Source of the DNA: Candidatus Woesearchaeota archaeon
GTDB taxonomy: Archaea > Nanobdellota > Nanobdellia > Woesearchaeales > SKGA01
DNA length: 64,000 bases
Direction of reading: 5' to 3'
Assembly (NCBI GenBank): GCA_021734105.1
Contig: JAIPJP010000002.1
Location: forward strand, 582 to 64,581
The position numbers and the translations under genes were made by a program. Shown here one piece after another: positions 3,153-63,544 of this stretch (position 1 is its first letter; each line of letters begins with the position of its first letter). Below the pieces are notes generated by a model. That model saw nothing but the letters and a program-made list of their open reading frames with translations, was not told the DNA's origin and made no database searches.

Positions 3153-3153
3153 A

Positions 3154-11445: not shown

Positions 11446-11718
11446 ATGGGGGTGAGTATCATGAGTGAAGAACCTTTTGCAAAGAAAGTTGATACGAAGA
11501 AATATCTAACGCTATCTTTCTTTTGTCAAAGAAATGATTTCCGTGTTTGTCCAAATTGTGGTTGTGTTACAATTTTAGATGCTGACAAGTTAGACAATTT
11601 AACTACTAAAGAGAGGATTGATTTTGTTTTTGATAATAAATTCAAAATACATCTAGGTCTTTGTTCAGATTCATGTGCTAAAGAATTTTTAGGAGGTCTT
11701 TATGATGTCTACAAATGA
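11446..11718 (+). CDS. Small zinc-finger protein (CPNCGC...C..C), 90 aa
   Basis: Cys cluster CQRNDFRVCPNCGCV...CSDSCAKEF. Overlaps the start of the downstream P-loop gene, which suggests coupling. Confidence 0.4.
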   Translation: MGVSIMSEEPFAKKVDTKKYLTLSFFCQRNDFRVCPNCGCVTILDADKLDNLTTKERIDFVFDNKFKIHLGLCSDSCAKEFLGGLYDVYK

Positions 11719-27681: not shown

Positions 27682-27868
27682 GACCATCACAGTAATAGTA
27701 ATTAACTTTTGTGGGAAGTAGTTATTGGAAGGGTGTGGATGTAATTTTCTTCTAAGACTTTACCACGACAAAATATAGCGAGAGCTATGTGCAAAATTCC
27801 TGTTTAGAGGTGGGTGTACAATTAATAGCGTCACACGCAAGTATAGTGTATTTATAATAGTCTTTTTC

Positions 27869-30800
27869 ATGCTTTTTCTAGCTACGGCGACAGTCTTTTC
27901 TTTTACAGAACAAACATCCTCTGAGACTCTTTCTGTACATTTTCCACAACTTTCTGAGCGTACTCTTGAAATAACTTCTCAGGCAAGCAACTACACTATA
28001 GAAAACCTTACTCGAAACCCCATAGTGTTTGGAAAACCAGTCAGTTGGGAACTTCTTCTTTCTGATGGTGTTCAATTATTTAACGTTGAATATACTACGC
28101 CTCCCGTAGTTGTAGCATCCACACAAACTAATACTGCAACGACCTGGCAAAAAGAATTAACTTTTAGTACTAATTTCACCGAAGGTTATGCTAATATTTC
28201 TTATGAGGATGTTCTCCCGCATTTAACAAACTTTACTATTACCCCTCCTATTAGCTATGCAATAGGTTATAATAATGCAATTAGTTTTACACTTCCACAA
28301 TTAGTGTTAGAAGAAACAATTCTTTTACAAGCATCTTTTTTAGATACTAATAACTCAATTTTTAATACTACAAACACTTCGCCTTTGATTAACATAAATA
28401 CAAGCCACACCAATCAAACAGTTGTTGTTAACCACACCTTTCCAACCCCACAAGAAACACTTAAAACTCAACAAGCAAAAAGTAAGCATGGCAACTTTGC
28501 TTTAACTCTGGCTAAAGGTCAAATCAAAAAAATAGCTATGGCTGATGATTTTTTCCTAACTGTAGAACTAGAAAATATCACTCAACCAGAGAATACAACA
28601 ATTGATATTGAACTACCTAAACCAGTTCATAAAAATATACATCTTTATCTTTGGTATGAAACACCAACTGGTGATTTTAAATCAATTCCTTACATCTTTT
28701 CTAAAAATAGAAAAACACTCACTTTACATTTAGCGGACTTAGCACTCGCACCAAGAGCAGGCGCAATGAAATTTAGACTCAAAGTTGGCCTTTCTGACTA
28801 TGCTGTTTCTGTGAATAAAAAATCTGCACAAGAAGTAGATGCAGTTATTGATTCAAAACTAGTAGTATTTGAAACGGCATTTGCAGATGTACAATCATTT
28901 TCCATTGTTGATCCAGAAAACTTGCCAGAAGTTCCACAACAAGCAGGCGAGTTTACTCACAAACTTCTCAAATTCACGTTAGAAAATCTCACGCAACCAA
29001 ACGTTACTATTAACTTAACATTTGATGATTTACCTGAAGATTTCCAACTATGGAAATTTAATGCAAACACAGGCAACTGGTACACTTTCCCTTACACACA
29101 ACTTGACGCAAATACGCTGCAAATTACTCTTGTTGATGGAGGACTAGGGGATGATGACGGAATTGTTAATGGAATAATTGTTGATGACTTGGGTATCACC
29201 TTGGGCTGGCAAAACGATAGCTTTGACTGGCGAATTGCATTTAACGTTACTGCAACATCGGGAAGCCTAGTTAATTATTCAACACTAGTACTTCTTAATA
29301 ACACAGTTTTTAATTTTAGCAACGCGCAAGACGATTTAGCAGACCTTCGAATAGCTTACTACAATGCAACAGCAGACACGGAAACGCTCGTTGCTCATTG
29401 GGTGGAAAACTACGATCAAAACTTTAGCTCAGGAAGCACTGCTGCACGTGTATGGTTTAAAGCACTCTACTTGGCAAACAATACTAACACCACCTTCTTT
29501 GTCTATTATGGAAACCCATCAGCAAGCTCAACTGCAAACGGAAGCGACGTATTTCTTTATTTTGATGACTTTGAAAACGGCATCGGATTTGATACAGGAG
29601 AATTATCTTTAGTACAAAACACTAGTTCAGCAAAAACAGGAACCTATGGAATTTCAGGAGATGGAACTGAAACGTATGATCAAGCATTTAATTCAGGTGT
29701 AAACAGTGGACAAGATATTGTTGTTGAGTCATGGGTGAAAAGTTGGGATTGTGATAAATCTCAAGACACTTCTCTTGCAGGTGTCATGGTTGGCCATCCA
29801 ACAGTAGGAGTGGACCAAGATGGCTATCAAGCATATCTTGATGAACGAGGAAGTCCTTATTTAGGAATTAGACAAGATTATGACAACGGAGATGTTATAG
29901 CAAGTGCAACATCCCCTATAACAACATTTGACACGTGGTATTTTCATAGCTTTACTTGGACAACAGCTAATGAACTTATTTTCAAATTGTATGATGAAGA
30001 CAGATCATTACTGCAAACAATTTCTGCAACAGATGCAACATATACAGATGGAGAATTTGGAATTGGCGCTTGGGGATGTGCGAACTGGGACGAATTTAGA
30101 ATGAGACCATACACTGCAACAGAACCAACCATAACATTTTATTCGGGAAGCGATTTTGTAGGTATAGCAAACATATCTATAGATAGACCAGTTAACGAGT
30201 CAAATCAAACACGTATACAATCATTTACTATGAATGGAACACTTGTTTGTTCTCGAGGACAATCATGCGGAAATGTTAGTACTTATTTTCAATATTATAC
30301 AACGGCAGCACCAACACAAAGCTGGTTTGAAACATCCTATACTGATTTTAATGATTCTGATTTTGAAAATACTTATAATATATCCTCATCACAAAACGGA
30401 TTTATTTCTTTAGATGTAGTTAATTCAGGTCATGAATGGTGGAATGTTGACTGGTCAAATAGAATGCCGCTAAAGATTTCAAATGTAACAGCGAATGCAA
30501 CAGCAATTCCTGTAAAACTTATTATTAATTCTTCAATGGTCGGTACTTCTTTTGACTGGACTACTGATTATAACTCGTCACGTTTTATTTGGATGAATGA
30601 AACAAGCGGTCTAGCGCAATCAGCAGATTACTGGATTGAAGAATGGAATACAGGTGCTCAAAATGCAACTATTTGGGTAGAAATTCCTTATCTTGAAGAA
30701 AATACGAATACCTCACTATATTTGTATTATGGTAATGATGCAGTCACAACACTTTCAGATGTGGATTCAGTATTTTTATTCTATGATGACTTTAGCGACG

Positions 30801-33800
30801 GAAATGATGATGGTTGGACTGTTCGAAGTGGAACATGGGTCGTAGAAAATAATGAGTCATACTATCAAACAACAACATTAACCACTTATTTGATATCTGA
30901 AGCAGGTGATTCCTCTTGGGAAGATTATACTGTTGAAACATCAATAAACATGACTGGCTTTGGAGGCTCAACATTTTTTGCAGGGCTACTTTACCGCTAT
31001 CAAGATACAAACAATCATTATGCAGTTATTTTGGATGACCGTGCAGATGATAGCATTTGGCTTCGACAATGGATAGAGGGAAGCTACGCAACAGAAGATC
31101 AAGAATGGAATGATGTAAATGTAGATTTAAATGTTTTTTTACCCTTACGAGTTGATATATTTACTAACGATGCAGGAACGCATACCAACAGAATACATTT
31201 CGATAACACGATAAAAGAATATAACTACTCTGCGTTTGGAGCTGGTAATATTGGATTAATTGCTCATAACACGCAACCACGATATGATTTTGTTAGCGTA
31301 AGAAAATTTACGCCATCACAACTTGTTGTTACTAATTATTCTTCAGAAGAACTCAACGTTTCTTCAAACGGAGAATATTATTCGAATATTTATGACTTTG
31401 AAACAGAAGACGTAACTTTTGAGAAAATTTATTGGACTTCATCAGTTCCAGGGCAAACAAGTTTTTCAATGCATACGCGCTCATCAGTAGGACTTGCAGG
31501 CGCATGGTACTCAGCAGACTGGCCATACCAAAAAGAAATAAACATCAGTAACACAGCAGGACCACTTTACGAATACCAAGTATTTGTACAAGCGAACCTT
31601 TCAACTGAATACGCAGCAGGAAAAATACAAAACAACTGTAGTGATGTACGATTTATCTATCTTAACCAAACGTCTTTAGAACAACAAGAAGTAAACTTCT
31701 TTACTGATGCTTGTGATCTCACCAATGAAGACATTGCAGATTTTTGGGTGAAAGTTCCTTTCCTAAAAAATGGTACTATAACTAAACTCTACTTATACTA
31801 TGGAAATAACTCCTTGCCTTCAGCAAGCAATATTGCAAACACGTTTACCTATACTACCAATAGAACAGTTGGTTATGTAGTAAGTAATATGAGCGCTCGA
31901 AATGGTATTCGCGTCACGAGTTTAGAAGATAACAATGAAATAGCAGTTGGCAGCGTAGGACATCAATTAAATGAATTTGACAACGAACTTGTCGTAGGAG
32001 GAAGTCTTACTATTGGCTCGGCAATTAAAGCAAAAAACCTTATTCAAGCAGAAGGAAACGGTGATGCAGACGACATGATAGTTCCACTATCATGGGCAGC
32101 GACACATTTTGTCTATGAAGGTATGCGATCAGATAATGATACGTATTGTTTTGTCTCGCCATGGGGCACAGCAGAAGTTAATTTGAGCGAAACAGGAGTT
32201 TTGCAATGGACTGACAATGTAACAGCAGCGGGCGTTTGCTATCAAGCAGATTTTGCTTCAAACACTGCAACAACAGTTGATTCATCTATTCCAATACTTG
32301 CCTACCACCACGGAAGAGATATTTCTCAACCGCCACGAGACTCATGGCCATTTTATCCAGCATCAACAGGACCACTATATCACCCTTCACGATCTAACGC
32401 CATTTATATTGGCGTTGGAGAAAATATCACTACGCTCACTTGCTATGGGAGTGATGGTACTTCACAAACAAGAAGTAATGTCGCTGCATTTGGCTATACT
32501 GATTGTACATCTCTATCAAATGGAAACTCGGGAAGCGGTGCTGCAGCAAAAATCGTTTCAGACTATCCTATTGGTGCTGTACAACAAGCAGATCACGACG
32601 GGACAGAATCAACTGTCTTTGTACCTCGAAAAGAAATGGGAACCGTCTTTGGAGCATACCACGACGCAGAGTACATTGCTCTTGTTTCTCCTTACTCTGG
32701 ATTTGACTGCGACTTATATGATTCCTCAGGATTTGATAGTACAGCAACATTTAGCACATCCTCAACAGAAGGCGTTGCAAAAGCGTGCTTTGGCTGTGGA
32801 TCAGATGCGACTTACATAACAGGTCCGTGGAAAGTTGTGTGTGAACAACCAGTCTGGATATACTATGAAGAAGATAGTGATGGTGATGAAACAAATCTCT
32901 TTGGCTATAAACAAATGAGACAATATGTCTATCCAGCACCAACCGTAGCTGTTGAGTTAGATGAACTTAATTATACGTATGTTTCTGGAAATCCAGATGA
33001 TTTTTATCAGTGGTCGCCATGGTTTTTAGAAACAGATAACACCTCAATTAGTTCACCAGATAATAGATATTTACAATATCGAGTCACACTTTCCACAACA
33101 AATTCTACAAAATCACCAATTCTAGATGATGTTACTTTAGAATATAAAATCATAGCAAACGCTTGGAAAAATATGAAACCTTCGGGAACATCATTTACTG
33201 CTAATAGTCCATATAGTTCTCTTCTTAATCAAACAGTAAATGTCACACCATCGCTAGCAGTAACGCCACAAGAAGTAGGAACCTATCTTGTCAGACTCCT
33301 TGCAAACAGCAGTTCACTTAGCGAAACATTCATCTCAGAAAATCGAAGCATTACTATTAATTTACAACCAGCATTCTCAAGCTTTACAACATCATCAAAC
33401 TTAGTTGCGCGTGATGGAGAAATTACGTTATCAGCACTGTTTTTAGATGACGTGGCTTCACCAATAAAATACTACAACGTTAGTTTTTATGATGAAACAG
33501 GAAATGGCAGTCGCTATTTTATTGGGTGGGCAATTACTGATGAAACAGGCTATGCAACAACAACCTACACGATTCCAAGCGATGCAACCTACGGCACGCA
33601 TATACTTAATGTTTCCTACAACGGCTCAACAACAAATTATATTAATAAAGCAGAACGAACAAGAACGATTAAAGTTTCTTCATCACCAGTAGTTCATGAC
33701 GTTTTTACTACTCCTGCAAATTTCGGCTACGGATTTAATATTTCTATTCAAGCAAATATAACTGACGGTGTTGGTCTTGATACAGTTCTAGTTAATATTA

Positions 33801-42800: not shown

Positions 42801-45800
42801 ATTGTTGGAATGGTAGCGCAAATATTCAAACCGAATATCGATACTTTACTATTGATGTAACTGCTCCAGTAGTATCCTATGAATTACCTACTGATACTGA
42901 TGGTCTTGGTGTTGGACGAAACTGGACGCTTATTAATATTTCAACAAACGAACCAACAAACGTAGGTATCTTAGAATGGTATAACGGCGCAACCTATCAA
43001 AATTATACGATGAACAAAGCAAGTAACACTAGCTACTGGATAAATATGTCGGGACTAGCAGATGATACTTATTCGTATAGAGTCTTTGCAAACGATTCAG
43101 CAGATAACTTTGGCAACACCACGTCAAGAACAATTATTGTTGCAACAACCATTCCATATATTATGCTTACTTCCCCAGTTAACACAACCGAATACACGTC
43201 TAATCTACTTTGGCTTAATGCAACAGCAAGCAAACCGATTAGCACCTGGACGTTTGAACTTAATGAAGAGAACTACACCTTCACACCAGATATTATTTTC
43301 CCAGCAGAACTCTTTGAAAACAATTTAACTGTCTACGCAACAGACGCAGACAACAACACAGGAAAAATAACTATCGCATTCACTGTTAATAACACGGTAA
43401 CATGGACAGATACCTTCCAGACATACGCAGGACTTACAGCAGCAGAAAACTTAGCAGTAGATACCAACGCAAGTGTAGATTTTTGTTGGCCAGTTCTACG
43501 AAACGAAACTTTCTCTGCACAAAATAACATGGAAGCTTGTTGGCATTACCGTCAACCAGTATCAGTCACATCAACAACAACGTTAATAGATTATCAAACA
43601 GTATTGCACTTAAACATTAGCAGTTTGGTAAGTAGTAGTAAAGCAAATGCTGACTGTAGCGATTTACGATTTACCTATTATAATGAAACAACAAATCAAG
43701 ATGAACTCATTGATTACTTCTTAGATGATTGTAGTAATACTGACGATGTACAGGTATGGCTAAAATTACCTCTTATTAATTCATCATCAAAAGTGCACGT
43801 CTATTATGGAAATCCTCGCGCAGAAGACAAATCAAACGGAACTGCAATCTTTGAACTTTTTGAGCCATTTAATTCAGTAACGGTAGGAAACTGGGGAAGC
43901 AACGCAGCAAACTGGGCTAGCTCAAACGGCATTTCTTATCCAACAACATCTGGCGGTTCATCGCAAATTACTTCAACAACTGCAACATCCACTCAATATG
44001 CAATAGAACTAAAACTAGCAGGAAACTCAACATCGGGGTCTGCAGGACGATTCTTCTTTGGACGACCAGCAGGCGCAAACAAATACATGGGACTTTACAT
44101 CGACCCTCCAGGAAACAGAGTACGACTCTTTAACAACGCATATACTGATTATACTATTAATGCATCCGAACAAAATAAATACTCCTTAGTAGCAGACTTT
44201 GTTAACAACAACTATACCCTTCATGTCAATAACAGTGTTTCTCCACAAATAGAACTTTCCACTAGCGCAACAGGAAGCATTCCAAATCCAATTTTTTACT
44301 CTTACTATACACAAGGTCTTCTTTTAGACTACTACGCACTTCGTAAATATTCGCCAAACCATCCAACAGTAGGTAGTATGGGTGGAGAAGAAACACCAAT
44401 AACTAACGCGACCTTTAGAAGTAAACTTATCTCGCCAAACCCATTTGGCGCATGGGTTAATTTTATTGCTTCAGGAAATTTCCCTGCTGGAACGGACGTA
44501 ACATTCCAACTTCGAAATGCAACAGATGCAAATATTTGTGGTAATTTAACATATGCTCAAGTATCCGCAGGCTACGAGCCATGCATGAATGCAGCATTTT
44601 TTACAGATGTTTACCTTTGGGCGCAATTAGAAACAACAGCAACATTGAGCACACCTTATTTATTTAATTGGACGATAGAATGGAATACTTCTATGACTGA
44701 TAACATAGTTCCGCAAGTAACGGTGACTTCGCCTTTAGCAATTACGCAAAACCAATCAACATCAGTTCTGCTTCAAGCAACTGTTATTGACAATGTTAAT
44801 ATGAGTCACGTTTTTGCTAATGTTTCTTGGGATGCAGGAGTAAACTGGGAGAACATAGAACTTATCAAACAAGGAACAAGTAACACCTATAATGCAACAT
44901 TCACTAATACTAGCTTAATTGGTGTTTACAACGTAGCTTTCTTTGCAAATGATTCCCGAAATAATATTAATGATACAGAAACTGGCAATTTTACCATTCG
45001 AGACTCAGTGGGACCGACTATTAATTCTCATAACGCATCACCATCACCAACTGCATATGAATTAAACATTACTATTCTTGCAAACGTAACTGACAATCTT
45101 GGTGTTGGTGACGTTTTCGTAGAAATTGAAAACACTAACTATACTATGCAACCGCTTGGTGGTCAAGTATATAGTTATGAATTTAACACAACAGATTATG
45201 CAGCAGGAACCTATAATTACTATATTAATGCAAATGACACGAGCAATCCTACTAACTGGGCAATTGAACAAACAGGAAGCTTTACCATTGCTCAAGCAAC
45301 CAGCAACATATCGCTTTTTATTAATGGCACACAAGGAAACTACGAAACAAATCAAGACTATCAAATAAATCTCAGCGCAATCATTACCAAGCCATCGCCG
45401 ACAACAGACTATATTGCAATCTTTGTCAATGGCACATTATCGGCAAACGCATCAGGGACAGCAGAAAACATCACCAGCTTTACACCAGGAACATATAATA
45501 TCTCCGCATCTTATTTAGGAAACGAAAATTACACGAGCGCCAGTGTATGGTATACGTTAACTGTTAACGACACCGAAGCACCAATCATTAACAATTATAA
45601 TGCAACGCCAAACCTGACTGCATATAGAAACGAAATTACTATTTTTGCAAACATCACCGATAATATTCTTGTAGATACGGTACTTGTAGAAATCGTTGGT
45701 GTAAATTATAGTATGAATGGACCGCCAGGAGATATTTATAATTACACGTTTAACACAACTGATTATGCGGCTGGCTTTTACAATTATACTATTTGGGTTA

Positions 45801-48800
45801 ACGACACCGCAAATAATAGCGCAACAAAACAAACAGGCAACTTCACCATAATTCAAGTAACAAGTATTCTTGCACTCTATTTGAATGGCACGCAAGGTAA
45901 TGAAAATGCAACGACAGCAGACATTATTAACATTACTAGCGTGTTAACACTACCAGCAGGAACATCTGACTTTGTACAAATCTACAGAGAAGGTTTGCTT
46001 ATTGCAAATAGCAGCAGTCCAGCAGTAAATATTTCGCAGCAACCACTCGGTTATCATAATATCACAGCTGAATTCTTAGGTAATGTCAATTTCACAGGAA
46101 CTAGTGTGATGTGGTTCCTTAATATCACGGATGGCACCCCTCCAAGTATTAACTCCCACAATGCAACACCAAACAGTACCATTTACGGCAACAACATAAC
46201 GCTTTATGCAAACGTCACAGATAATGTTGCCGTTGATACTGTTTATTTTGAAATTAATGGCGTGAACCAATCAACAACGCCTGCTGGAGATATTTATAGT
46301 TATGAATTTAATACAACAGATTATGCTGTCGGATTCTACACGTATCGAGTACTGGCGAATGATTCATCAGATAATTTTGCAACACCACAAATAGGAAACT
46401 TCACTATTTTTCCGGCTACTAGCGAGCTTCATCTTTATTTGAATGGTACCGAAGATAATGTAAGCTTTGATGAGGACTTGTTGATTAATTTGACTGCTGA
46501 TTTGAGTGTTCCTGTTCTTGGTGAGAATGTTTGGATTTTGCTAGATGGTGTGAGTGTTGCTAATAGTTCTAGTCCTGCTGTAAATATTTCTGCTCATCAG
46601 CCTGGAGTCTATAATATTACCGCTGTGTATGCTGGCAATGAGAATTATTCTGGAACTCGTGTTACTTGGTTTATGACCATTAACGACACGACAAATCCAA
46701 ATGTAACTGCATTATTACCAACCACAGGATTTGTAATCAATGATTCTATGCCTATTCTTATTAGTGCGAATATAACTGATAATGTAAATGTAAGCAAAGT
46801 CTTTGCAAATGTAAGTTGGAATGGTATGTATAATTACATTGAATTAACAAGCACAAACAATTTAACGTATAATTACACGTTTACTAATACTTCCTGGGTA
46901 GGAAATTATGGTGTACTCTTCTTTGCAAATGATTCTGTCAATAATATTAACAATACAGAAACAACCTGGTTTAATGTTACGTTCTCAGATGATCAAGCAC
47001 CAAACATTACTAGTTTTAATGCAACTCCAAACGTAACCAGTTATGGTAACAATATCACTATTTATGCAAACGTGACTGACAATGTCGATGTGAGTGATGT
47101 ATTTGTAGAATTTGATGGTACGAATTACAGCATGACTAATGATAGTCTACCTGGAGTCGGTGGTTCAATTTATGGTTATAGATTCAATACAAGTAATTAT
47201 GCAGTAAACATTTATTCATTTAGAATTGTAGCAAATGACACAAACAAAACCCATCTTCTTACGGCAAACTTTACACAACTAACAACAGGCGATGCACTTA
47301 CTGGTCTTTTAAGTTATTGCGAACTACGCGAAAATAGTACGAATAATTGGTCATCACCAATAAAAATGTCTTATGATTCTGAAACAACAACCTATAGCGC
47401 AACACTACCTTCCCCTAAACAATATTGGTTTCAAATAACTTGTGTGGATACAAAACAGGAAACAAATTTATTTATTATTGGTGATGTAGATACTAGCAAA
47501 CCAAAACTCATTGATTTACCAACAAATGAATTGTTTATTGAGGATTTATATGAACCGGTTAATGATACTAATTCGCCAACAACAATCACCTATCAAACAA
47601 GCAATGGTAATTTTGTTTTAACAACAACAGAAGGTATCTTAGAAGAATTTGGCGTTACTGATACTTTGGCTCTTTTTTTTACTATACGTAATGTTAGCAG
47701 TAAACCGGTTGCTGTTGATTTGGCATTACCTTTTGCATTACCTAAAGGATTACATTTCTATTTATGGAAAGAAGTTAACGGTGAAACAATTGCTGTACCT
47801 TATGAAATTTCTTCTGATAGCAGAAGTCTGACGCTGATTTTACAAGATGGCGTTATTGATGAAGATGGACTTGTTAATGGCGTTATTGTTGATCCTTTAC
47901 AACTTATGTTACCTACCTACGATTTCTTTGTCTCAAAAACCAATACAACTAGTACACACGTAACGGTTGCTGAGCGAGAATTTTTCGTAACAACACCTAA
48001 AGGAGCATTGGAGTCCGTGGCATTGGTAGATCCCCTCAATCTGCCAAACTTGCCCGGTACTCCAAACTCCTTTACACATAAACTCGTGCGCTTCACAGCC
48101 GACACGCTTGGTGCTGAAGCGCTCGATGTTTATTTGACCTATGATGACTTACCAATAGAATTTGAACTATGGAAATTTAATTCTCAAACCATTGCATGGT
48201 ATGAGTTTCCTTACGAAAGAATTGATGAAAAAACTATTATGATAACTTTGTATGATGGCGGCTTAGGAGATGATGACGGAGAAGTTAATGGTATTATTGT
48301 TGATGATGTGGGCATAATTAGTTTAGGAACAGAACTGCGCATTGGCGATTTGAGTGACTCACAAACAGTTTATTCGAATGAACAAAATTATTTCTATGCT
48401 AATTATACGAACGCATCAGACGGTAGCGCAATTAACGACACTATTGGCTATTGCGAATTCACAGAAAATAGCACTGGTAGTTGGAGCGCACTTGTGAATA
48501 TGACGTATAATTATGAGAATGGATTGTATGAACTTAATAGAACAATAACGACAGGTACGCATATGTTTAATGTGAGTTGTTTTTCAACAGATGTACGTTA
48601 TCAAAACATAACGCTTAATGAAACATTCAATATAACGCTCTTTGTAGATGAAGCGCCAGTAATTGAAATACAACTACCTGCAGCAAACGTAGTGACTACA
48701 GTTCAAAATGTTAGTTTTTCCTGTGGATTTACTGATACACTTAACTTAGCAAACATTACACTTTACTTAACAAATGCAACAAACGAATCATTTGGTGTTA

Positions 48801-50518
48801 ACGATACAACGATTGTTAGCGGACTTTCCAATAGTTCCTCTTGGGAATACGCGCTAGATAGAGGAACATATACTTGGAATTGCCTTGCAGAAGACAATGC
48901 CTCGCAAGCAACAGGAGGAGTGAATAAAACAATATATGTGAATGAACCAGCAAACGCAACATACACAGGATTTAGTGGGAATACTACGGCATTTAACACC
49001 TATCCAACACCTGAAGCAATACTTGGCGCAACACTTGACGCACCTGGCGATGCACAAATAGAATGGAACGGTGTTGTGAATGCAAGTAATCAAGACTTCG
49101 ATAGTTTTGTTACGCTCGGACAAAATGTGGTGAGTGTAGATATTGGTGGATTAGATACTAGTTTTAACAGCAGTGCAAATGTCACGCTTCGAAATATTTC
49201 TTGGGCGTATCCAGTAGTTTATCGCAATGGTGTGCTTTGTACTGGTTGTGACGTACTGAGTTATGCAAATGATGTATTGGTCTTTAACGTCACAGGATTT
49301 TCATCTTATACAACCGGCGAAGGAACAAACCTGTCTATTTGGGATACCAGTGATAGTGTGGAAGTCTTTAACGACGAACAAAATATCTTTTATGCAAATT
49401 ACACCAACATTACAGATGGTAGTGCAATTACTGGTCTTGACGTATATTGCGAGTTCACAGAAAATAGCACGGGAACTTGGAGCGCACTTAATAATATGAC
49501 TTACAATATAACAAGTGGTCTTTATGAATATAATAAAACACTCCATGATGGTATTTCACAATTCAATGTAAGTTGTTATAATGATCAAAACTATGCAAAC
49601 CTATCGCTTGTTGATAGCGTGAATATCACTCGACGACCAACAAGAGAACTCCATATCCTTAACATTACGTACTCATCATCATCGCCAATTGAAGGAACAA
49701 GCGTCACAGTATATGTGAACGTTTCAAATACAGGAAATGAATCAGCAACAAATTTCACACTCGATGTAAATGTTTCCTTATGGAATGGAACAGCTGGCGT
49801 TTTTGATGAAACATTATCTCTTGTTAATCAAAATATTGCAGATGCAACAACAACACTGTTTGAACTTTCTTGGACGGCTCAACCAGGAACCTATATTTTT
49901 GATGCTTATGTTGATAGCGAGTTTAACGTAACAGAACTCAATGAAACCAATAACACGTTTAGTACTAATGTAACAGTTGATGCATGGGCATATCAACACG
50001 GAGAAATAAACCATACTGTTGTTTTAGGGGCGGGTACAAATGAAGTCTTGAACTGGTCAGATGACTCTGAAGACGGTTATGTCTTTTTTTATGATTATGA
50101 TTCTTCTATTAATCTTCTTGCGCTTGAAGCATTAGGAACAGGAAGCAATGATTTTATAGAAGCAGATGAGGCGCTAGGCATGACTGGATTTAGTGATTCT
50201 ATAGCTGAACTCTTTGATGCAGACGGTAATGATATAGCAGATAGCACAACAAGTGTTACGGTCTTTGGCACCACCTATAATGATGTGCCAACAACGCTCT
50301 CAACGAACTCCTCCTCTTCATTTACTACAGGAATAATGTGGGATGCAACAGGAGGGGGCGAATATGACGGTAGTCAAGACCTTGTCATCGTTGCAATAGT
50401 AAGCGCTACTACTGCCGGCGCTTATGGCACTTATGATTATGAGGTTCGCGTGCCTGCTTTACTTAAATCATGGAAAGGCAGCAACGACTTTTTTGCTTAC
50501 GCAACAGAATTCACCTAA
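27869..50518 (+). CDS. Giant multi-domain cell-surface glycoprotein (7,549 aa) with DUF2341-like + LamG-like modules, Ig-like tandem repeats and a CARDB-like domain
   Basis: Uninterrupted 22.6-kb ORF. Six modules at aa ~450, 860, 1220, 2070, 3070 and 5230 carry the DUF2341-type signature W.YR..I.I.N...L.DYQ....N.....CSD(V/I)RF.Y.N......E....E.....A.(F/I)WVK(V/I)P.......(L/I)Y.YYGN. Most are followed by a LamG/concanavalin-like segment (e.g. GIGAWGCANWDEFRMRPYT). A CARDB-like domain sits near the C-terminus (VSNTGNESATNFTLDV...LNETNNTFS). There are hundreds of N-x-S/T sequons. No C-terminal TM helix. Confidence 0.85.
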   Translation: MLFLATATVFSFTEQTSSETLSVHFPQLSERTLEITSQASNYTIENLTRNPIVFGKPVSWELLLSDGVQLFNVEYTTPPVVVASTQTNTATTWQKELTFSTNFTEGYANISYEDVLPHLTNFTITPPISYAIGYNNAISFTLPQLVLEETILLQASFLDTNNSIFNTTNTSPLININTSHTNQTVVVNHTFPTPQETLKTQQAKSKHGNFALTLAKGQIKKIAMADDFFLTVELENITQPENTTIDIELPKPVHKNIHLYLWYETPTGDFKSIPYIFSKNRKTLTLHLADLALAPRAGAMKFRLKVGLSDYAVSVNKKSAQEVDAVIDSKLVVFETAFADVQSFSIVDPENLPEVPQQAGEFTHKLLKFTLENLTQPNVTINLTFDDLPEDFQLWKFNANTGNWYTFPYTQLDANTLQITLVDGGLGDDDGIVNGIIVDDLGITLGWQNDSFDWRIAFNVTATSGSLVNYSTLVLLNNTVFNFSNAQDDLADLRIAYYNATADTETLVAHWVENYDQNFSSGSTAARVWFKALYLANNTNTTFFVYYGNPSASSTANGSDVFLYFDDFENGIGFDTGELSLVQNTSSAKTGTYGISGDGTETYDQAFNSGVNSGQDIVVESWVKSWDCDKSQDTSLAGVMVGHPTVGVDQDGYQAYLDERGSPYLGIRQDYDNGDVIASATSPITTFDTWYFHSFTWTTANELIFKLYDEDRSLLQTISATDATYTDGEFGIGAWGCANWDEFRMRPYTATEPTITFYSGSDFVGIANISIDRPVNESNQTRIQSFTMNGTLVCSRGQSCGNVSTYFQYYTTAAPTQSWFETSYTDFNDSDFENTYNISSSQNGFISLDVVNSGHEWWNVDWSNRMPLKISNVTANATAIPVKLIINSSMVGTSFDWTTDYNSSRFIWMNETSGLAQSADYWIEEWNTGAQNATIWVEIPYLEENTNTSLYLYYGNDAVTTLSDVDSVFLFYDDFSDGNDDGWTVRSGTWVVENNESYYQTTTLTTYLISEAGDSSWEDYTVETSINMTGFGGSTFFAGLLYRYQDTNNHYAVILDDRADDSIWLRQWIEGSYATEDQEWNDVNVDLNVFLPLRVDIFTNDAGTHTNRIHFDNTIKEYNYSAFGAGNIGLIAHNTQPRYDFVSVRKFTPSQLVVTNYSSEELNVSSNGEYYSNIYDFETEDVTFEKIYWTSSVPGQTSFSMHTRSSVGLAGAWYSADWPYQKEINISNTAGPLYEYQVFVQANLSTEYAAGKIQNNCSDVRFIYLNQTSLEQQEVNFFTDACDLTNEDIADFWVKVPFLKNGTITKLYLYYGNNSLPSASNIANTFTYTTNRTVGYVVSNMSARNGIRVTSLEDNNEIAVGSVGHQLNEFDNELVVGGSLTIGSAIKAKNLIQAEGNGDADDMIVPLSWAATHFVYEGMRSDNDTYCFVSPWGTAEVNLSETGVLQWTDNVTAAGVCYQADFASNTATTVDSSIPILAYHHGRDISQPPRDSWPFYPASTGPLYHPSRSNAIYIGVGENITTLTCYGSDGTSQTRSNVAAFGYTDCTSLSNGNSGSGAAAKIVSDYPIGAVQQADHDGTESTVFVPRKEMGTVFGAYHDAEYIALVSPYSGFDCDLYDSSGFDSTATFSTSSTEGVAKACFGCGSDATYITGPWKVVCEQPVWIYYEEDSDGDETNLFGYKQMRQYVYPAPTVAVELDELNYTYVSGNPDDFYQWSPWFLETDNTSISSPDNRYLQYRVTLSTTNSTKSPILDDVTLEYKIIANAWKNMKPSGTSFTANSPYSSLLNQTVNVTPSLAVTPQEVGTYLVRLLANSSSLSETFISENRSITINLQPAFSSFTTSSNLVARDGEITLSALFLDDVASPIKYYNVSFYDETGNGSRYFIGWAITDETGYATTTYTIPSDATYGTHILNVSYNGSTTNYINKAERTRTIKVSSSPVVHDVFTTPANFGYGFNISIQANITDGVGLDTVLVNITNESGQTETHEMTLLDGFYVYNFSQPWLKQNYNYTIIANNTDSVTTIATGNTFGLVVQSYVDIKTEKDAYRNNELVELSLTKGQWPEMEGWLYRLPVNITSEASLTDYQVQINLDSSNFRFSESNNGSDIRFTYYNTTTGNETNISHWTESYNATAQSATIWVNVPEISDTVQTKINLYYGNDNVNSSSNGTNTFIYFEDFDTTPFDWYNSPAGSGVVLDSTRAYSGTYSGHKIGGNDYRGAIEDVGTTFGRDVIMEFWVNRNAAFGGGQVDRIGFIEGTGDGYGWAFDHNADDILTDVRTNYGPATLNPTSTPDVMDEWVFGQFVVKASGVVEAYRYVDGTLLGSMATTSSTHNAFNRVYIFGGYDYWVDDIRIRKTSDTAFLTTSFGTEEVDALGLINEENTKFKGDLKMIVQRWTGSAWQNLNPPVIEDDEQILDTYEVVDLASIWDAAGAWNTTTRAPGTYRIYAIMEDSSNNLLENIDGTYIVGSANFTIKESEVRLVNLTYENEFEQGLLAYETGDVIDWINATVQAFENIAYDANATLSLLDSSKSSVGWGPQSETKLCGDLLENQTCEQQWNNASNGYIIPTDAASGTYTFYWDVLSTSENGQEYSNNSISFAVHNIPQTANTSLSQTRVYKPNSTIFNVTFTNLWNENLSGVSANINCPAFSGFTCQNLTPTTFSSIENETDFTIQFNVSANESVPSNDYNLTVELNYTNPGGETKSWNATANTLLEVRLAGILVITDYLHPITVTRNNNANFYAYMNNSGDTIATNAWLNYTFPTGWTVTTGNQDESFASIPINGVVWNNITAQPGINALLGSRTIRLDSNADDGRNDFKQYTVTVYANTSLSLTKNLSIVNRGEHIGLTGTLTYDNGTPVTNRWIYFYDETENTYLGANQTNALGQATLAYYINSSSTLSLHTLNASFNGTTSLYLRPTATTTSIDVHEKPQFSNVLISPNLSGYGSNVYINSTVTDIDVFDEIDTVWAIITYPDASTQRVNLTNVPPDDFYYIFNETWELGNYAVTLYANDTTGAQNNSNSYSFSVNASLLLSMQTAQNSYSQNEEVNLSDGGLTSWWNTDWPYRIAITAENTAENLTDYQLFIRRNLGTAYTNGNIQADCSDVRFTYYNTTAQTEQEITFYTDYCSLTSINNADFWAKIPFMQNATNTTVYLYYGNNQATDASNLTATFTYDSPKTIGYVVGEDHVSNGLEIMSYVASNEVNVGASTYTLGEFGTQTVSSGLSLATEIQAKDAVQIEGAGADDDIIAPVSWASTEFIFGGMRSNDRFCMLSPWGSASVTIYDGGSSDWSGTVTSSGTCQTVDISNGNAARVVSDIPILVVKTSTNSRDAYTFYPATTDDIYGGSASNAVFIASGPSVTAVSCIGADATSGSTSIPANDEYDCGADVTTGDSGSGTAVKVVSDYKIGAIQQADHDGTESTVLVPTKEFGTVFGSGLDAQYIAVVSLTQNNNCSIYTSGGLFDWDISTGTSALSQACFGCNSDSVFVSGPWKMECEQPVWAYYEDDNDHETNMLSYKQLRQYVHPEPSLTYSSEQSRGSKVYNQQTNTHKGYVLLTVQENSTGSWNHVATISNDTSTLRSIPATGLDLATIWNSVSWNTGTIAAGTYRAYGALQDDQGTTLTNYDSSEITGDWEFILEAPDLHLAIDDLRIYDVTETAQANWRIYTGDLIGSGLNNSHTLYKDDIYRIEVDVENIGSTTWTINDTTINYSNFNQNWTINETDYIWYSTLATIANRRADTSKLSGNFTDTITWDISSNQGTVAAGDVATFFFIINMSEEDTKGIRFRIEHPDFDISDYSTLESIIFTVNAPALYNDIYNFTDTKVIRGDNTTLYARWDKTIGEANFTYNVVTPVGYATYQNTTPANTKNWSNYTINTGSTWFLGNHSAKIIVEDQSGNTNTSLPYLTFGVWGHAQPTSIQLNTSNIAVGDNVSIQCRITDATNGNSVIAGYNVSFTNGTDTLGWNTTSATGWAVFNYHDLTAGSEQVGCFITESAADFYTIGALNSTMTTLLTTEEVLPTYSSLSGPTTAHKGDVVGLNSYWQDNFGLDFANLSTNATGTFANASRLEISGLADWANFSYTIPTSMTPGTLGWKVHGVDTSGNVNTTYVSTIAVWGYSEIGSSTLSPASVQEGNPTTMGCRIVDEQSLSALSNYNVTFYYQNKSNPGYIYLGYNLTNTTGWANYNFILPNASTYDIKCNITDDATQQYNSSTPFFAVKELNVVSSADVYPPLIINGNYGINDTELYRGQCFMVYGEWNESINESWIQYNNTPTNITEFNGTAPFTANWTNISICTNNTWVPGEYTVQLFAKDQEGNLNNTLSTLSFEVKARANLSWIGPIGDLNRTTINLSCQVHDFDTGDPISGYTVRFYDGDEGSTLGNVATNASGVATLEYDYTIINSGNPVNVGPDALSCQIFVSAGYELATSFVEETVYFYGDLAANITTPVSGAIMHTGVAESLVVNAEDEFGNTVRDINGNVATIDATWKNSTQTTLATGASTTWSIPATYATGVETITVNITEPYYRWNTDSVNVNIWGYADVTISTPPAGTYANNTPLMLTCRVTNSATGQGINTYPIAFYNDSTLLTTTPANATGYATYTINTNTMQEGDRVLRCEIDNNAPLLYNKSSAYQSNVSVIVDASAPVIMYTASSDANNTYNRNWIYARVLLTEPNLDTLYLNWNGTNETFTASAGNEYWTNKTGLGDGNYTYLAWANDTAGNTGQSLLRKVIVDTTSPVVTIYSPQEQPYNATTLLINYTVTDANVDACWYNLDNNATTNSTLTGCQLDNLTSLSEGNHSIIIYANDTAGNLGQTAINFSVDTTFPTVSISHPVNTSSYFDDNVQDLNFSTGDDIALDSCWYTLDNGAEAPIPGCANTSISGLTNENHTLSVFVNDTAGNVNNETIWFIINLNKLIPLPVAPENNSYLNNQTIYVNATTNINATSCNYSIDDGVPSSMTNSTNLDWYALTPALTETFHNLTFYCWNGSANIQTEYRYFTIDVTAPVVSYELPTDTDGLGVGRNWTLINISTNEPTNVGILEWYNGATYQNYTMNKASNTSYWINMSGLADDTYSYRVFANDSADNFGNTTSRTIIVATTIPYIMLTSPVNTTEYTSNLLWLNATASKPISTWTFELNEENYTFTPDIIFPAELFENNLTVYATDADNNTGKITIAFTVNNTVTWTDTFQTYAGLTAAENLAVDTNASVDFCWPVLRNETFSAQNNMEACWHYRQPVSVTSTTTLIDYQTVLHLNISSLVSSSKANADCSDLRFTYYNETTNQDELIDYFLDDCSNTDDVQVWLKLPLINSSSKVHVYYGNPRAEDKSNGTAIFELFEPFNSVTVGNWGSNAANWASSNGISYPTTSGGSSQITSTTATSTQYAIELKLAGNSTSGSAGRFFFGRPAGANKYMGLYIDPPGNRVRLFNNAYTDYTINASEQNKYSLVADFVNNNYTLHVNNSVSPQIELSTSATGSIPNPIFYSYYTQGLLLDYYALRKYSPNHPTVGSMGGEETPITNATFRSKLISPNPFGAWVNFIASGNFPAGTDVTFQLRNATDANICGNLTYAQVSAGYEPCMNAAFFTDVYLWAQLETTATLSTPYLFNWTIEWNTSMTDNIVPQVTVTSPLAITQNQSTSVLLQATVIDNVNMSHVFANVSWDAGVNWENIELIKQGTSNTYNATFTNTSLIGVYNVAFFANDSRNNINDTETGNFTIRDSVGPTINSHNASPSPTAYELNITILANVTDNLGVGDVFVEIENTNYTMQPLGGQVYSYEFNTTDYAAGTYNYYINANDTSNPTNWAIEQTGSFTIAQATSNISLFINGTQGNYETNQDYQINLSAIITKPSPTTDYIAIFVNGTLSANASGTAENITSFTPGTYNISASYLGNENYTSASVWYTLTVNDTEAPIINNYNATPNLTAYRNEITIFANITDNILVDTVLVEIVGVNYSMNGPPGDIYNYTFNTTDYAAGFYNYTIWVNDTANNSATKQTGNFTIIQVTSILALYLNGTQGNENATTADIINITSVLTLPAGTSDFVQIYREGLLIANSSSPAVNISQQPLGYHNITAEFLGNVNFTGTSVMWFLNITDGTPPSINSHNATPNSTIYGNNITLYANVTDNVAVDTVYFEINGVNQSTTPAGDIYSYEFNTTDYAVGFYTYRVLANDSSDNFATPQIGNFTIFPATSELHLYLNGTEDNVSFDEDLLINLTADLSVPVLGENVWILLDGVSVANSSSPAVNISAHQPGVYNITAVYAGNENYSGTRVTWFMTINDTTNPNVTALLPTTGFVINDSMPILISANITDNVNVSKVFANVSWNGMYNYIELTSTNNLTYNYTFTNTSWVGNYGVLFFANDSVNNINNTETTWFNVTFSDDQAPNITSFNATPNVTSYGNNITIYANVTDNVDVSDVFVEFDGTNYSMTNDSLPGVGGSIYGYRFNTSNYAVNIYSFRIVANDTNKTHLLTANFTQLTTGDALTGLLSYCELRENSTNNWSSPIKMSYDSETTTYSATLPSPKQYWFQITCVDTKQETNLFIIGDVDTSKPKLIDLPTNELFIEDLYEPVNDTNSPTTITYQTSNGNFVLTTTEGILEEFGVTDTLALFFTIRNVSSKPVAVDLALPFALPKGLHFYLWKEVNGETIAVPYEISSDSRSLTLILQDGVIDEDGLVNGVIVDPLQLMLPTYDFFVSKTNTTSTHVTVAEREFFVTTPKGALESVALVDPLNLPNLPGTPNSFTHKLVRFTADTLGAEALDVYLTYDDLPIEFELWKFNSQTIAWYEFPYERIDEKTIMITLYDGGLGDDDGEVNGIIVDDVGIISLGTELRIGDLSDSQTVYSNEQNYFYANYTNASDGSAINDTIGYCEFTENSTGSWSALVNMTYNYENGLYELNRTITTGTHMFNVSCFSTDVRYQNITLNETFNITLFVDEAPVIEIQLPAANVVTTVQNVSFSCGFTDTLNLANITLYLTNATNESFGVNDTTIVSGLSNSSSWEYALDRGTYTWNCLAEDNASQATGGVNKTIYVNEPANATYTGFSGNTTAFNTYPTPEAILGATLDAPGDAQIEWNGVVNASNQDFDSFVTLGQNVVSVDIGGLDTSFNSSANVTLRNISWAYPVVYRNGVLCTGCDVLSYANDVLVFNVTGFSSYTTGEGTNLSIWDTSDSVEVFNDEQNIFYANYTNITDGSAITGLDVYCEFTENSTGTWSALNNMTYNITSGLYEYNKTLHDGISQFNVSCYNDQNYANLSLVDSVNITRRPTRELHILNITYSSSSPIEGTSVTVYVNVSNTGNESATNFTLDVNVSLWNGTAGVFDETLSLVNQNIADATTTLFELSWTAQPGTYIFDAYVDSEFNVTELNETNNTFSTNVTVDAWAYQHGEINHTVVLGAGTNEVLNWSDDSEDGYVFFYDYDSSINLLALEALGTGSNDFIEADEALGMTGFSDSIAELFDADGNDIADSTTSVTVFGTTYNDVPTTLSTNSSSSFTTGIMWDATGGGEYDGSQDLVIVAIVSATTAGAYGTYDYEVRVPALLKSWKGSNDFFAYATEFT

Positions 50519-50670: not shown

Positions 50671-51450
50671 ATGGTCGATATTGATTACGATACACGGGGC
50701 ATAAGTCCTATCGTAATTCATGATTTTGTAAAAAATAACAACCAAAATGAGGTGTGTGAGACAATGAAAAAAATTGCAATTTTAATGGTCGTTGCTGTTC
50801 TAGCAATTGGAATGGTAATGGCAGCAGAACCTGGTCAAATAGACTCAGTTACTTCGGTAGACTTAGGAGAATATACTTCTAACGCAGGCCAAAGTATAAA
50901 TCTTCAATCAGGTAATGTAACAGATGCAGACCTTTCAGCAAGAGTATCCACTTTTGTCTGGGCAGGTCTTGTTGGTGACGTAGGCGGTGACATCGTATTA
51001 GGAACCGGAAATGGCGCAGGACAAATTCTTTACAACTGGTCAGCACAAGGTGCAGTTGTCTATGCAAGTGAAGCAGCAGCAATTGATTGGACTGATGGTA
51101 ACATAATCCCTCTTGCGGTAGGAAATATTCCACCACAGGTTAATACAGGTGCAGCAGATGATTATACCAATACTTTTACTGGAAATGAAGCTATGACTGC
51201 TTCAGCGATTTATGATACGGTAGCACTAGTGCCTTTTGCAACAACCTGGGACAATACTACGACTGCTATATGGAAAACGTATTCATTTGAAGATGATGCA
51301 GCTGATGAACCTATTTGGGCTGGCGAAGTGCAAACAGGCGGTACGTCATTTAATGGAAGTGTAGTTGATTACCAAATGATTCTTCCGGAAGACGGTCGTT
51401 CTAACGATGTAAGTCTAACTCAGTACTTCTTGTGGGCAGAATTAGTCTAA
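50671..51450 (+). CDS. Small secreted protein S1 (probable start at the Met at ~50764: MKKIAILMVVAVLAIGMVMAAEPG). Paralog of the next gene.
   Basis: Signal peptide. Conserved blocks shared with S2: TTWDNTTTAIWKTYSF...IWAGEVQTGG...VVDYQMILPEDG vs TTTWQDGTQGSLRTYAL...IWAGKAQGNVQG...TVDYQLLVPAFG. Confidence 0.55.
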   Translation: MVDIDYDTRGISPIVIHDFVKNNNQNEVCETMKKIAILMVVAVLAIGMVMAAEPGQIDSVTSVDLGEYTSNAGQSINLQSGNVTDADLSARVSTFVWAGLVGDVGGDIVLGTGNGAGQILYNWSAQGAVVYASEAAAIDWTDGNIIPLAVGNIPPQVNTGAADDYTNTFTGNEAMTASAIYDTVALVPFATTWDNTTTAIWKTYSFEDDAADEPIWAGEVQTGGTSFNGSVVDYQMILPEDGRSNDVSLTQYFLWAELV

Positions 51451-51492
51451 GCCTTACGGCTTTTTTTCTTTTTTTTCTTTTTTTTATTCTCT
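51451..51492 (+). terminator. Oligo-T terminator-like tract after S1 (TTTTTTTCTTTTTTTTCTTTTTTTTATTCTC)
   Basis: Three consecutive T7–T8 runs directly after the stop codon. Confidence 0.4.
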
Positions 51493-51546
51493 CATTCTTT
51501 GCATTAAGTAAAAAGTTATTTAAATAGAAAAACTCCAATAACTCGT

Positions 51547-63386: not shown

Positions 63387-63544
63387 ACACTCTTTATAAC
63401 AAGGCGTATTTATATACTTTACTTCAAAGAGTCTAGTGCTACTAAGAACTATATTAAAAAAATGTACTGAAAATTTTTTCTTTGGAGCGTACTTTCTCAC
63501 TCTTTAAGGCGCGAGCATGATGTTTGCAAAGATTTTTATTATTT

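Follow-up and report, generated by a model that had tools for sequence, protein, structure and literature searches.

The window analysed here is a 64,000-nucleotide (nt) stretch of contig JAIPJP010000002.1 from a Candidatus Woesearchaeota archaeon (assembly GCA_021734105.1); 35% of it is occupied by a single giant gene, an open reading frame (ORF) of 22,650 nt on the forward strand (27869-50518) that begins with ATG, has zero internal stops and encodes 7,549 amino acids (aa). The product is identical to protein P0020 = MCF7798375.1 (NCBI), deposited as 'DUF2341 domain-containing protein [Candidatus Woesearchaeota archaeon]' and encoded on a 66,125-bp contig. A first-pass annotation of this DNA had described one uninterrupted 22.6-kb frame, and the open frame itself, the identical public protein and the orthologous frames described below bear this out; its remark that the other genes average under 1 kb needs correction, since the 28 other window ORFs of at least 150 aa have a mean length of 1.22 kb and a median of 1.02 kb, and the giant gene is about 20 times as long as a typical window gene. 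Archaeal markers (GatD/GatE, CDC48, deoxyhypusine synthase, TruD and an intein-bearing XPD helicase) and the Woesearchaeota label in GenBank identify the source organism as a DPANN archaeon, in agreement with the earlier assignment to an archaeon with a small genome. Codon usage of the giant gene correlates with that of the rest of the window (relative synonymous codon usage, r = 0.92), and its GC content also matches that of its neighbours; horizontal acquisition of the gene was considered and rejected on these grounds. The giant protein is interpreted here, with moderate confidence and from sequence analysis, as a secreted, heavily N-glycosylated, non-enzymatic and multivalent glycan-binding attachment fibre of this Woesearchaeota archaeon, most probably the attachment device of an episymbiotic cell, that would be tethered through its C-terminal module and a cassette encoded next to it.

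The protein was scanned against Pfam and NCBIfam and for internal self-similarity, and Ig (immunoglobulin)-like families were scanned region by region. The resulting architecture, in which ConA stands for concanavalin A and QQADHDGTES for a domain defined below, is as follows.

27821-27868, forward strand: probable true 5' end, suggested by hydropathy and orthologue conservation; ATT start, n-region (RK) and first half of the signal-peptide hydrophobic core
27869-50518, forward strand: giant ORF as called, 7,549 aa, identical to MCF7798375.1
N-terminal ~200 aa: no assigned domain
28601-29200, forward strand: tandem 'choice-of-anchor U' pair, aa ~245-444 (NCBIfam NF041766)
29336-30118, forward strand: module 1, DUF2341 (aa 490-570; Pfam, 55.7 bits) and putative ConA-like domain (aa ~575-750); aa 491-725 match module 4 at E = 2e-18
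30623-31348, forward strand: module 2, DUF2341 (aa 919-984; Pfam, 65.4 bits) and putative ConA-like domain (aa ~985-1160), by self-similarity to module 6
31586-32968, forward strand: module 3, DUF2341 (aa ~1240-1325) and all-beta QQADHDGTES domain (aa 1330-1700)
aa ~1760-2060: Ig-like domains
34175-34948, forward strand: module 4, DUF2341 (aa 2103-2184) and predicted ConA-like lectin jelly-roll (aa ~2185-2360)
35735-35950, forward strand: NPCBM_assoc (NEW3, CARDB-like), aa 2623-2694, 31.4 bits against a cut-off of 24.4
aa ~2750-3050: Ig-like domains
37136-38458, forward strand: module 5, DUF2341 (aa ~3090-3170) and second QQADHDGTES domain (aa ~3172-3530), 46% identical to module 3 over ~500 aa
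39155-43408, forward strand: two Ig-like arrays, aa ~3763-4420 and ~4633-5180, seen as internal repeats (Big_13, 48.9 bits; Big_3_3, 47.1 bits; Big_3_5 weak)
43652-44398, forward strand: module 6, DUF2341 (aa 5262-5342; Pfam, 43-49 bits) and putative ConA-like domain (aa ~5345-5510), by self-similarity to modules 2 and 4
44675-47338, forward strand: array of ~190-aa double-Ig repeats, aa 5603-6490, copies ~50% identical (Big_7, 63.3 bits in four stretches; Big_3_5, 47.6 bits in three)
aa 6458-6557, 6820-6936 and 7152-7263: three copies of a ~100-aa domain
47666-48316, forward strand: second 'choice-of-anchor U' pair, aa ~6600-6816 (NCBIfam NF041766)
49646-50515, forward strand: C-terminal module, aa 7260-7549, consisting of CARDB (aa 7261-7365) and a 185-aa tail (aa 7365-7549)

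The six DUF2341 domains (PF10102) score 43-77 bits each, above the gathering cut-off of 23.4 bits (55.7, 65.4, 76.7 and 43.4-49.3 bits for the four listed individually; 232 bits over five stretches for the first half of the protein). The CARDB domain (PF07705) scores 42.7 bits against a cut-off of 22.7 and covers profile positions 4-100 of 101; the regional scans place Big_7 (63.3 against 24.1 bits), Big_3_5 (47.6 against 35.5), Big_13 (48.9 against 27) and Big_3_3 (47.1 against 27) above their cut-offs, and the two choice-of-anchor U regions, which are 41% identical to each other, score 71.5 and 88.5 bits against a 32-bit cut-off. The six DUF2341 repeats, the Ig-like repeats and the C-terminal CARDB domain that had been recognized from the sequence alone are all recovered in this way; no catalytic families were detected in the giant protein by the Pfam and NCBIfam scans. 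The LamG-like (laminin G-like) segments expected to follow most of the DUF2341 repeats fared differently: the Laminin_G families PF00054, PF02210 and PF13385 gave no match at E ≤ 0.01 on the protein halves and none at E ≤ 1 on four isolated modules, and the profile searches that the first-pass annotation had recommended thus confirm DUF2341, CARDB and Ig families above threshold and Laminin_G nowhere.

The structural modelling recommended alongside these searches points to a more general relationship. A model of module 4 (aa 2060-2370), built from an alignment of four internal copies and six database homologues, reached a pLDDT (predicted local distance difference test) of 68 and a pTM (predicted template modelling score) of 0.51, with residues 110-161, the first ~50 of the second domain, poorly modelled; in a fold search it matched ConA-like lectins and the carbohydrate-binding module (CBM) family CBM66, and its top matches also included galectins and beta-sandwiches associated with glycoside hydrolases (GH). 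On this model, the segment after DUF2341 in module 4 is a ConA-like jelly-roll at the level of the fold superfamily, and internal homology suggests ConA-like domains in modules 1, 2 and 6 as well. The LamG-like segments are therefore retained, as a ConA-like fold modelled in module 4, for four of the six modules, and the other two carry a different domain. As stand-alone proteins, the nearest relatives of this DUF2341 plus ConA-like combination have 334-452 aa, and one of them has an archaeal class III pilin-like N-terminus.

This different domain, here called QQADHDGTES, follows the third and fifth DUF2341 domains; it spans ~370 aa with invariant motifs that include QQADxDGxES and DETN. It matched no Pfam family at E ≤ 0.1 and no relative in the PDB by profile search; its model (pLDDT 83, pTM 0.85) is all-beta, and Foldseek returned no PDB structure at E ≤ 0.001, so that the modelling yielded a fold assignment for module 4 and none for this domain.

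A scan of one genome per species by means of the QQADHDGTES domain yielded 30 loci with relatives of the giant gene. At locus L004 (CAYRYB010000005.1), the homologous frame is open for >5,056 aa and aligns with window aa 2-5030 in a single high-scoring segment pair, with 62% identity over 5,046 aa and only ~20 inserted or deleted residues; at L005, in a Woesearchaeota metagenome-assembled genome (MAG), the gene is likewise collinear at 47% identity. The fetched sequence ends before the giant gene does at both loci. The upstream gene order at both is that of the window, GatD, GatE, an LPG-synthase-like gene on the minus strand, a 618-aa surface protein and the giant, and GatE is 72% and 65% identical to its window counterpart in the L004 and L005 genomes, respectively. 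Large collinear blocks were also found at L006 (Nanobdellota, 6,089 aa), L028 (>6,607 aa), L014 (4,699 aa), L013, L023 and L024. L004, L017 and L021 are labelled 'uncultured Methanosarcinales archaeon'; given that L004 is syntenic with the window locus at 62-72% protein identity, the label or binning of these three MAGs is probably wrong.

Conservation per 100 aa is even along the giant protein (0.36-0.81), and DNA repeats within the gene do not exceed ~100 nt in length or 82% identity. Independent assemblies keep the same frame and domain order, which makes an assembly chimera, or several genes run together, very improbable, and the pattern suggests a gene under constraint. That the giant is an artefact of any kind, whether a chimera, several genes fused through lost stops or a decaying pseudogene, can be given hardly any weight: the sequence does come from a metagenome-assembled contig, its annotated start is apparently off by 48 nt, and it differs from L004 by one nt just upstream of the start, but at least three independent assemblies hold the same open frame of >15 kb with identical domain order, repeats able to mislead an assembler are absent, and composition and codon usage are homogeneous. 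A diversity-generating retroelement, considered as a reason for so large a surface gene in a DPANN archaeon, was rejected, as no reverse transcriptase was found among the scanned window ORFs and no template/variable-type repeat in the DNA (best repeats ~100 nt, ≤82% identity).

The called ATG at 27869 interrupts a hydrophobic stretch: codons upstream of it in the same frame encode ...SVTRKYSVFIIVFF, and the in-frame translation across the 5' end reads INSVTRKYSVFIIVFF-M-LFLATATVF, with a hydropathy (KD19) peak of 2.59. Within the called ORF the KD19 maximum is only 1.48, and thus no internal hydrophobic segment is present. No in-frame ATG, GTG or TTG occurs between the upstream stop and 27869; an ATT at 27821 lies six bases after the Shine-Dalgarno-like AGAGGTGG (27805-27812), and similar motifs precede several other window genes. 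The sequence 'SVTRK[YF]SV' is conserved at the N-terminus of the L004 and L005 orthologues, and the succession of GGTGGG, 4-6 bases and an in-frame ATT is kept in the window (27805-27823), in L004 (~6356-6373) and in L005 (~6365-6382). L004 encodes ...IRSVTRKFSVIVVIMF..., L005 a comparable N-terminus of K/R plus hydrophobic residues, and the L006 giant has a TTG start and a full signal peptide. Because the called ATG cuts a hydrophobic segment that is conserved in orthologues, translation probably starts upstream, likely at ATT 27821, and would yield a Sec-type signal peptide or signal anchor. L004 has an in-frame GTG inside the GGTGGG motif, where the window differs by one base; this difference may be a sequencing indel that hides a GTG start. 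The conserved GGTGGG-ATT arrangement also suggests a non-canonical AUU start, perhaps limiting initiation on a very costly mRNA.

The class III prepilin motif ([KR]-[GA]) is absent from the N-termini of the window giant and of the L004, L005 and L006 proteins, where K/R is followed by Y/F/T with no G/A at position -1; with no class III signal and no PilB/C-type genes in the window, the giant does not group with type IV pilin-like proteins. The earlier statement that the protein lacks a transmembrane (TM) anchor holds for the interior of the called ORF and has to be qualified at the N-terminus, where a probable signal sequence had been lost through the start call.

The giant protein contains 372 N-x-S/T sequons, compared to 152 +/- 10 in residue shuffles (2.45x, z = 21), and the reversed motif [ST]-x-N occurs at chance level (155). 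The corresponding ratio is 2.0-3.4 in archaeal homologues of the giant, 0.96 and 1.11 in giants of the candidate phyla radiation (CPR) that share the QQADHDGTES domain, and 1.14 in seven cytoplasmic window proteins pooled; the flanking membrane-anchored proteins are sequon-poor. The extreme sequon density pointed out at first sight is thus directional and found in archaeal and not in bacterial homologues; it fits selection for archaeal N-glycosylation of the giant. The 64-kb window does not contain aglB.

The C-terminal module links the giant protein to its neighbours, among which the following genes are of interest.

25616-27472, forward strand: upstream partner candidate, 618 aa, with predicted signal peptide, C-terminal TM helix and basic tail, from the translation; distant paralogue of 52348-54075 (E = 1e-07)
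50671-52239, forward strand: two tandem small secreted paralogues, 259 and 230 aa, 30% identical (E = 2e-29)
52348-54075, forward strand: downstream partner candidate, 575 aa, with predicted signal peptide and C-terminal TM anchor, from the translation and from homologues in other loci

The last ~290 aa of the giant are 37-42% identical to the C-termini of the L006, L023 and L028 proteins, even where the intervening ~1,600 aa are missing. A metagenome scan with the C-terminal module returned 186 relatives, in which the module lies at the extreme C-terminus in 79 of 79 judgeable loci, ending 0-18 residues from the stop, in ORFs that range from ~320 aa to >3,600 aa. Profile-profile comparison by hhalign (84 tails against 40 small proteins) aligned the tail with the family of small secreted proteins, hereafter the sec family, at a probability of 98.8% (E = 6.5e-17, 158 columns), and both share the C-terminal pattern ...G.YD[YF][EQ]..VP....Y.[YF]..EL; this homology is visible by profile-profile comparison only, and BLASTP of the giant's tail against its two small secreted neighbours was not significant (E 0.67-2). 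The giant thus belongs to the C-terminal-module family by terminal position and by homology of its tail to the small secreted proteins encoded directly downstream, and the tail domain appears to be a fused copy of these proteins. As the giant has no membrane anchor of its own, the conserved module is a likely mounting point. The sec family has no Pfam family and no sequence relative in the PDB by profile search, and NCBIfam gave nothing meaningful for the neighbouring proteins. The first small secreted protein (50671-51450) is probably mis-started, with a signal peptide MKKIAILMVV... beginning at ATG 50764, 31 codons in.

The survey of downstream genes, by single-sequence tblastn, covered 40 metagenomic loci whose sequence extends 3 kb or more past the stop. 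A sec-family homologue starts within 3 kb on the same strand in 17 of these 40, usually as the next gene and often as a tandem pair; the membrane-anchored family lies downstream in eight, and four have the full gene order of the window. Among the 30 loci fetched with the QQADHDGTES domain, by contrast, a small-protein homologue was found at one, where it precedes another giant. Homologues of the 575-aa protein come after a sec-family gene at L052, L084, L086 and L110 and precede the giant at L017; orthologues of the 618-aa protein hold the same position at L004 and L005 and adjoin giants at L006 and L023. The 19 members of the membrane-anchored family in these loci have a conserved architecture (mature N-terminus VVNSxDWxD, ~500-aa ectodomain, C-terminal TM helix and basic tail) and no Pfam or NCBIfam family. 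A relationship of this family to the tail or to the sec family was considered and rejected (hhalign probability ≤2.4%). The conserved downstream cassette lends indirect support to the earlier suggestion that the protein is anchored by partner proteins.

An exhaustive phmmer search of 1.84 billion cluster representatives found the QQADHDGTES domain in 443 proteins at E ≤ 0.001; among the best 150 of these matches, 43 have at least 2,000 aa and 16 at least 4,000 aa. Approximately 29 of the same 150 are ~845 aa long, with a FlaF/FlaG-like helix (MSGF..IGFMFSFF) at the N-terminus, and combine DUF2341/LamG with the QQADHDGTES domain (P0004-P0007, P0027-P0089); one of them is encoded immediately behind FlaC/D/E and flagellin-family genes of a Nanoarchaeota MAG (GCA_048625195.1; L001, 8246-12529), which may point to an archaellum-like or pilus-like apparatus that bears this domain. 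One Chloroflexota protein combines it with a bacterial prepilin N_methyl motif. Genomes that encode the domain belong to DPANN (Woese-, Nano- and Aenigmatarchaeota), Thermoplasmata, Paceibacterota, Saccharibacteria, Bdellovibrionales, Acidimicrobiia and Chloroflexota. In the CPR loci L029, L031 and L026 (Saccharibacteria, Paceibacterota), it is found inside ORFs of 3,000 to >5,000 aa that are otherwise unrelated to the archaeal giants; judging from these sequences, episymbiotic bacteria and archaea have evidently exchanged the domain.

These observations suggest how an attachment fibre could work. A Sec-type signal peptide would export the chain, which requires a start upstream of the called ATG, and its ~370 sequons would be offered to the archaeal oligosaccharyltransferase. 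The extracellular chain would be a string of roughly 60 beta-sandwich domains, in which Ig-like arrays act as spacers and a putative ligand-binding head goes with each of the six DUF2341 domains (four ConA-like jelly-rolls and two QQADHDGTES domains); the heads would bind glycans or glycoproteins on another cell multivalently, presumably those of a host surface layer (S-layer) or envelope. The tail would dock into, or co-assemble with, a structure built by the small secreted proteins; this structure would be held on the cell by the co-encoded proteins with signal peptide and C-terminal TM anchor, and the N-terminal ~7,000 aa would project outward. In archaeal type IV pilus loci, DUF2341 proteins have been predicted to act as adhesins at the pilus tip (PMC4858521), and M. 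maripaludis needs one of them for transformation that depends on pili (PMC10133366); the pilin-like and FlaF/G-like stand-alone relatives of both module types fit this published picture, in which DUF2341 proteins serve type IV pilus-like systems as adhesins. Giant LamG/Ig surface proteins have been proposed as host-interaction devices of Nanohaloarchaeota, and one was detected by proteomics (PMC6642349, PMC10266531). Giants with the QQADHDGTES domain in DPANN, CPR and Bdellovibrionales, whose members attach to other cells, also count in favour of attachment.

As a caveat, several observations weigh against an attachment fibre. The conservation of the giant is uniform and indel-poor and would fit a structural envelope component equally well; adhesins engaged in an arms race with a host usually have variable tips. 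Evidence for the lectin fold comes from a single module, whose model is mediocre (pLDDT 68); the docking model draws on homology and gene order alone. The 64-kb window holds no type IV pilus or archaellum machinery, and the giant lacks a class III (prepilin) signal sequence. A sec-family gene in 17 of 40 loci and a membrane-anchored gene in eight of 40 fall short of all loci, although single-sequence tblastn under-detects families as divergent as these. Finally, some Woesearchaeota may not be obligate episymbionts.

The principal competing explanation, clearly less probable than an attachment fibre and still a serious one, is a structural role in the archaeon's own envelope, as a glycoprotein canopy or sheath that follows the logic of SlaA/SlaB, where a membrane-anchored stalk protein holds an outer S-layer protein, or resembles a halomucin-like protective coat and does not bind a host. 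Even, indel-poor conservation over 5,000 aa that is nearly as high as that of GatE, a sequon density typical of S-layer glycoproteins, conserved adjacency to proteins with signal peptide and C-terminal TM anchor that resemble stalk or anchor proteins, and C-terminal-module proteins of ~320 to >3,600 aa, as if many cargoes shared one envelope-attachment domain, all agree with such a role, for which halomucin (cited in PMC6642349 and PMC11573180) provides a precedent. However, no known S-layer protein comes near 7,500 aa or carries six lectin-type modules; the architecture, with Ig spacers and lectin heads, matches that of fibrous adhesins; the flanking TM proteins are sequon-poor, unlike typical S-layer glycoproteins; and QQADHDGTES and DUF2341 modules also occur in pilin-like proteins and in predatory and episymbiotic bacteria.

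The structural matches could indicate a protein that binds environmental polysaccharides or particles, for substrate capture, in a biofilm matrix or as a scaffold comparable to CBM-rich scaffoldins, as the best hits of the module 4 model are CBMs and lectins (CBM66, galectins, GH-associated beta-sandwiches) and NPCBM_assoc and CARDB domains are common in glycan-active surface proteins. This explanation appears improbable, given that glycoside hydrolase, lyase, dockerin and cohesin domains are absent from the giant and its neighbours, that the taxonomic spread of QQADHDGTES favours cell-attached lifestyles, and that genomes in this group are small and the window lacks polysaccharide-use genes. 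Even less is to be expected of a tip or accessory adhesin on a type IV pilus-like or archaellum-like filament, as proposed for the Methanococcus DUF2341 proteins (PMC4858521, PMC10133366). Stand-alone homologues with class III, FlaF/G-like or N_methyl N-termini, one of them beside the FlaC/D/E and flagellin genes, speak for it; yet the N-termini of the giant and its orthologues lack [KR]-[GA] and look like Sec/signal peptidase I signals, genes for PilB/ArlI, PilC/ArlJ, prepilin peptidase and pilins are absent from the 64-kb window, and the conserved partners are unrelated Sec-type proteins.

In the Sulfolobales S-layer proteins SlaA and SlaB, a large, glycosylated, anchorless outer protein is combined with a co-encoded, Sec-exported protein that has a C-terminal TM helix. 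The window locus has the same two-part layout by analogy; the size and lectin content of the giant are unlike SlaA, and the two are likened by description, not by homology. A further analogy, in mechanism only, can be drawn with the chaperone-usher tip adhesins FimH and PapG, where a large binding part is joined to a C-terminal domain homologous to small secreted subunits of the same operon; no sequence relationship or demonstrated fold relationship exists, the window locus has no chaperone or usher, and polymerisation of its small proteins is only proposed.

Among giant proteins, the closest parallels are the SPEARE proteins of Nanohaloarchaeota, with 5,998-9,409 aa (PMC6642349, PMC10266531). 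They share with the window giant a DPANN source organism, an extracellular chain of several thousand residues, a Sec signal, Ig-like and ConA/LamG-type domains, a notable share of a small genome and a proposed role in host interaction. SPEARE proteins cross the membrane with a TM segment at the C-terminus, which is followed by a conserved ATPase region in the cytoplasm (of VirB4/TraG-like or restriction-enzyme-like type), and a gene for a VirB4-like ATPase is adjacent; in contrast, the window giant has no hydrophobic segment in the called ORF and no ATPase or helicase family in the Pfam and NCBIfam scans, its downstream genes encode small secreted proteins, it ends in CARDB plus a sec-like tail, and its DUF2341/QQADHDGTES modules are not those described for SPEARE. 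Giant DUF2341/FhaB proteins have been noted in Patescibacteria (PMC11809585). These and the DUF2341 proteins (MJ1470-type) of pilus loci resemble the window giant in PF10102, present here in six copies, in a predicted adhesive role and in the occurrence of >4,000-aa proteins in ultrasmall episymbionts. The pilus-locus proteins are on the 0.4-1.4 kb scale, with pilin-like N-termini and pilus genes beside them, whereas the window giant has a Sec-type signal and no nearby pilus genes; the CPR giants share only the QQADHDGTES and DUF2341 modules with it (~30% identity) and are not sequon-enriched. ConA-clan domains are the commonest in archaeal proteins >5,000 aa, dominated by Laminin_G_3, whose function 'is not understood' (PMC11573180). 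Halomucin of Haloquadratum walsbyi and other huge archaeal proteins are, like the window giant, extracellular, >5,000 aa and sugar-related; halomucin differs as a mucin-like protective coat of a free-living haloarchaeon, and the window giant has no Laminin_G_3 match and a different modular grammar.

Elsewhere in the window, an XPD/Rad3-type helicase (DEAD_2, HBB, Helicase_C_2; 56014-59406, reverse strand) is split by an intein with LAGLIDADG homing-endonuclease domains. A 737-aa transglutaminase-core protein (61287-63500, reverse strand) and a 588-aa protein with only a Lon_C proteolytic domain (4389-6155) could be surface or secreted enzymes, and no link between them and the giant gene is drawn. 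Several ORFs of 168-626 aa (6947-8827; 10200-11264, reverse strand; 11702-13294; 2646-3660) have no Pfam or NCBIfam match, as is typical of DPANN genomes. Scans of the window for tRNA genes and Rfam families found neither.

The first-pass annotation had called proteins of this size and domain combination poorly characterised, which is fair; however, giant LamG/Ig surface proteins of DPANN and giant DUF2341 proteins of CPR already form a class known from the literature (PMC10266531, PMC6642349, PMC11573180, PMC11809585); the window giant itself was already deposited under its DUF2341 label. Four elements were found nowhere in the literature searched: a module that is always terminal, the homology between it and the small secreted proteins next door, the cassette as a conserved unit, and the unannotated QQADHDGTES domain together with its spread over lineages that live attached to cells. 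A bolder proposal, offered tentatively and with much less confidence than the attachment fibre itself, combines these elements: the C-terminal module, the tandem small secreted paralogues and the protein with signal peptide and C-terminal TM anchor could constitute an undescribed DPANN surface-display system, in which the small proteins would build a filament or lattice, cargoes of ~300 to >7,500 aa would be inserted FimH-like through a subunit-like C-terminal domain, the giant would be the largest cargo, and QQADHDGTES would represent a new receptor-binding fold common to archaeal and bacterial episymbionts and predators.

DPANN archaea and CPR bacteria live attached to other cells, and how they recognize and hold their hosts is largely obscure; suspicion usually falls on their giant surface proteins, few of which have been analysed in any detail. 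The giant family described here has full-length orthologues that are 47-62% identical and is thus suited to evolutionary and structural study, and an unannotated 370-aa domain with no solved structural relative recurs both in FlaF/G-like proteins encoded beside archaellum genes and in giants from DPANN, CPR and Bdellovibrionales. The locus also yields a concrete hypothesis for the mounting of an anchorless giant, by way of a terminal domain that it shares with co-encoded small secreted proteins, together with a membrane-anchored partner; should the cassette indeed serve display or assembly, it would add something new to the biology of the archaeal cell surface.

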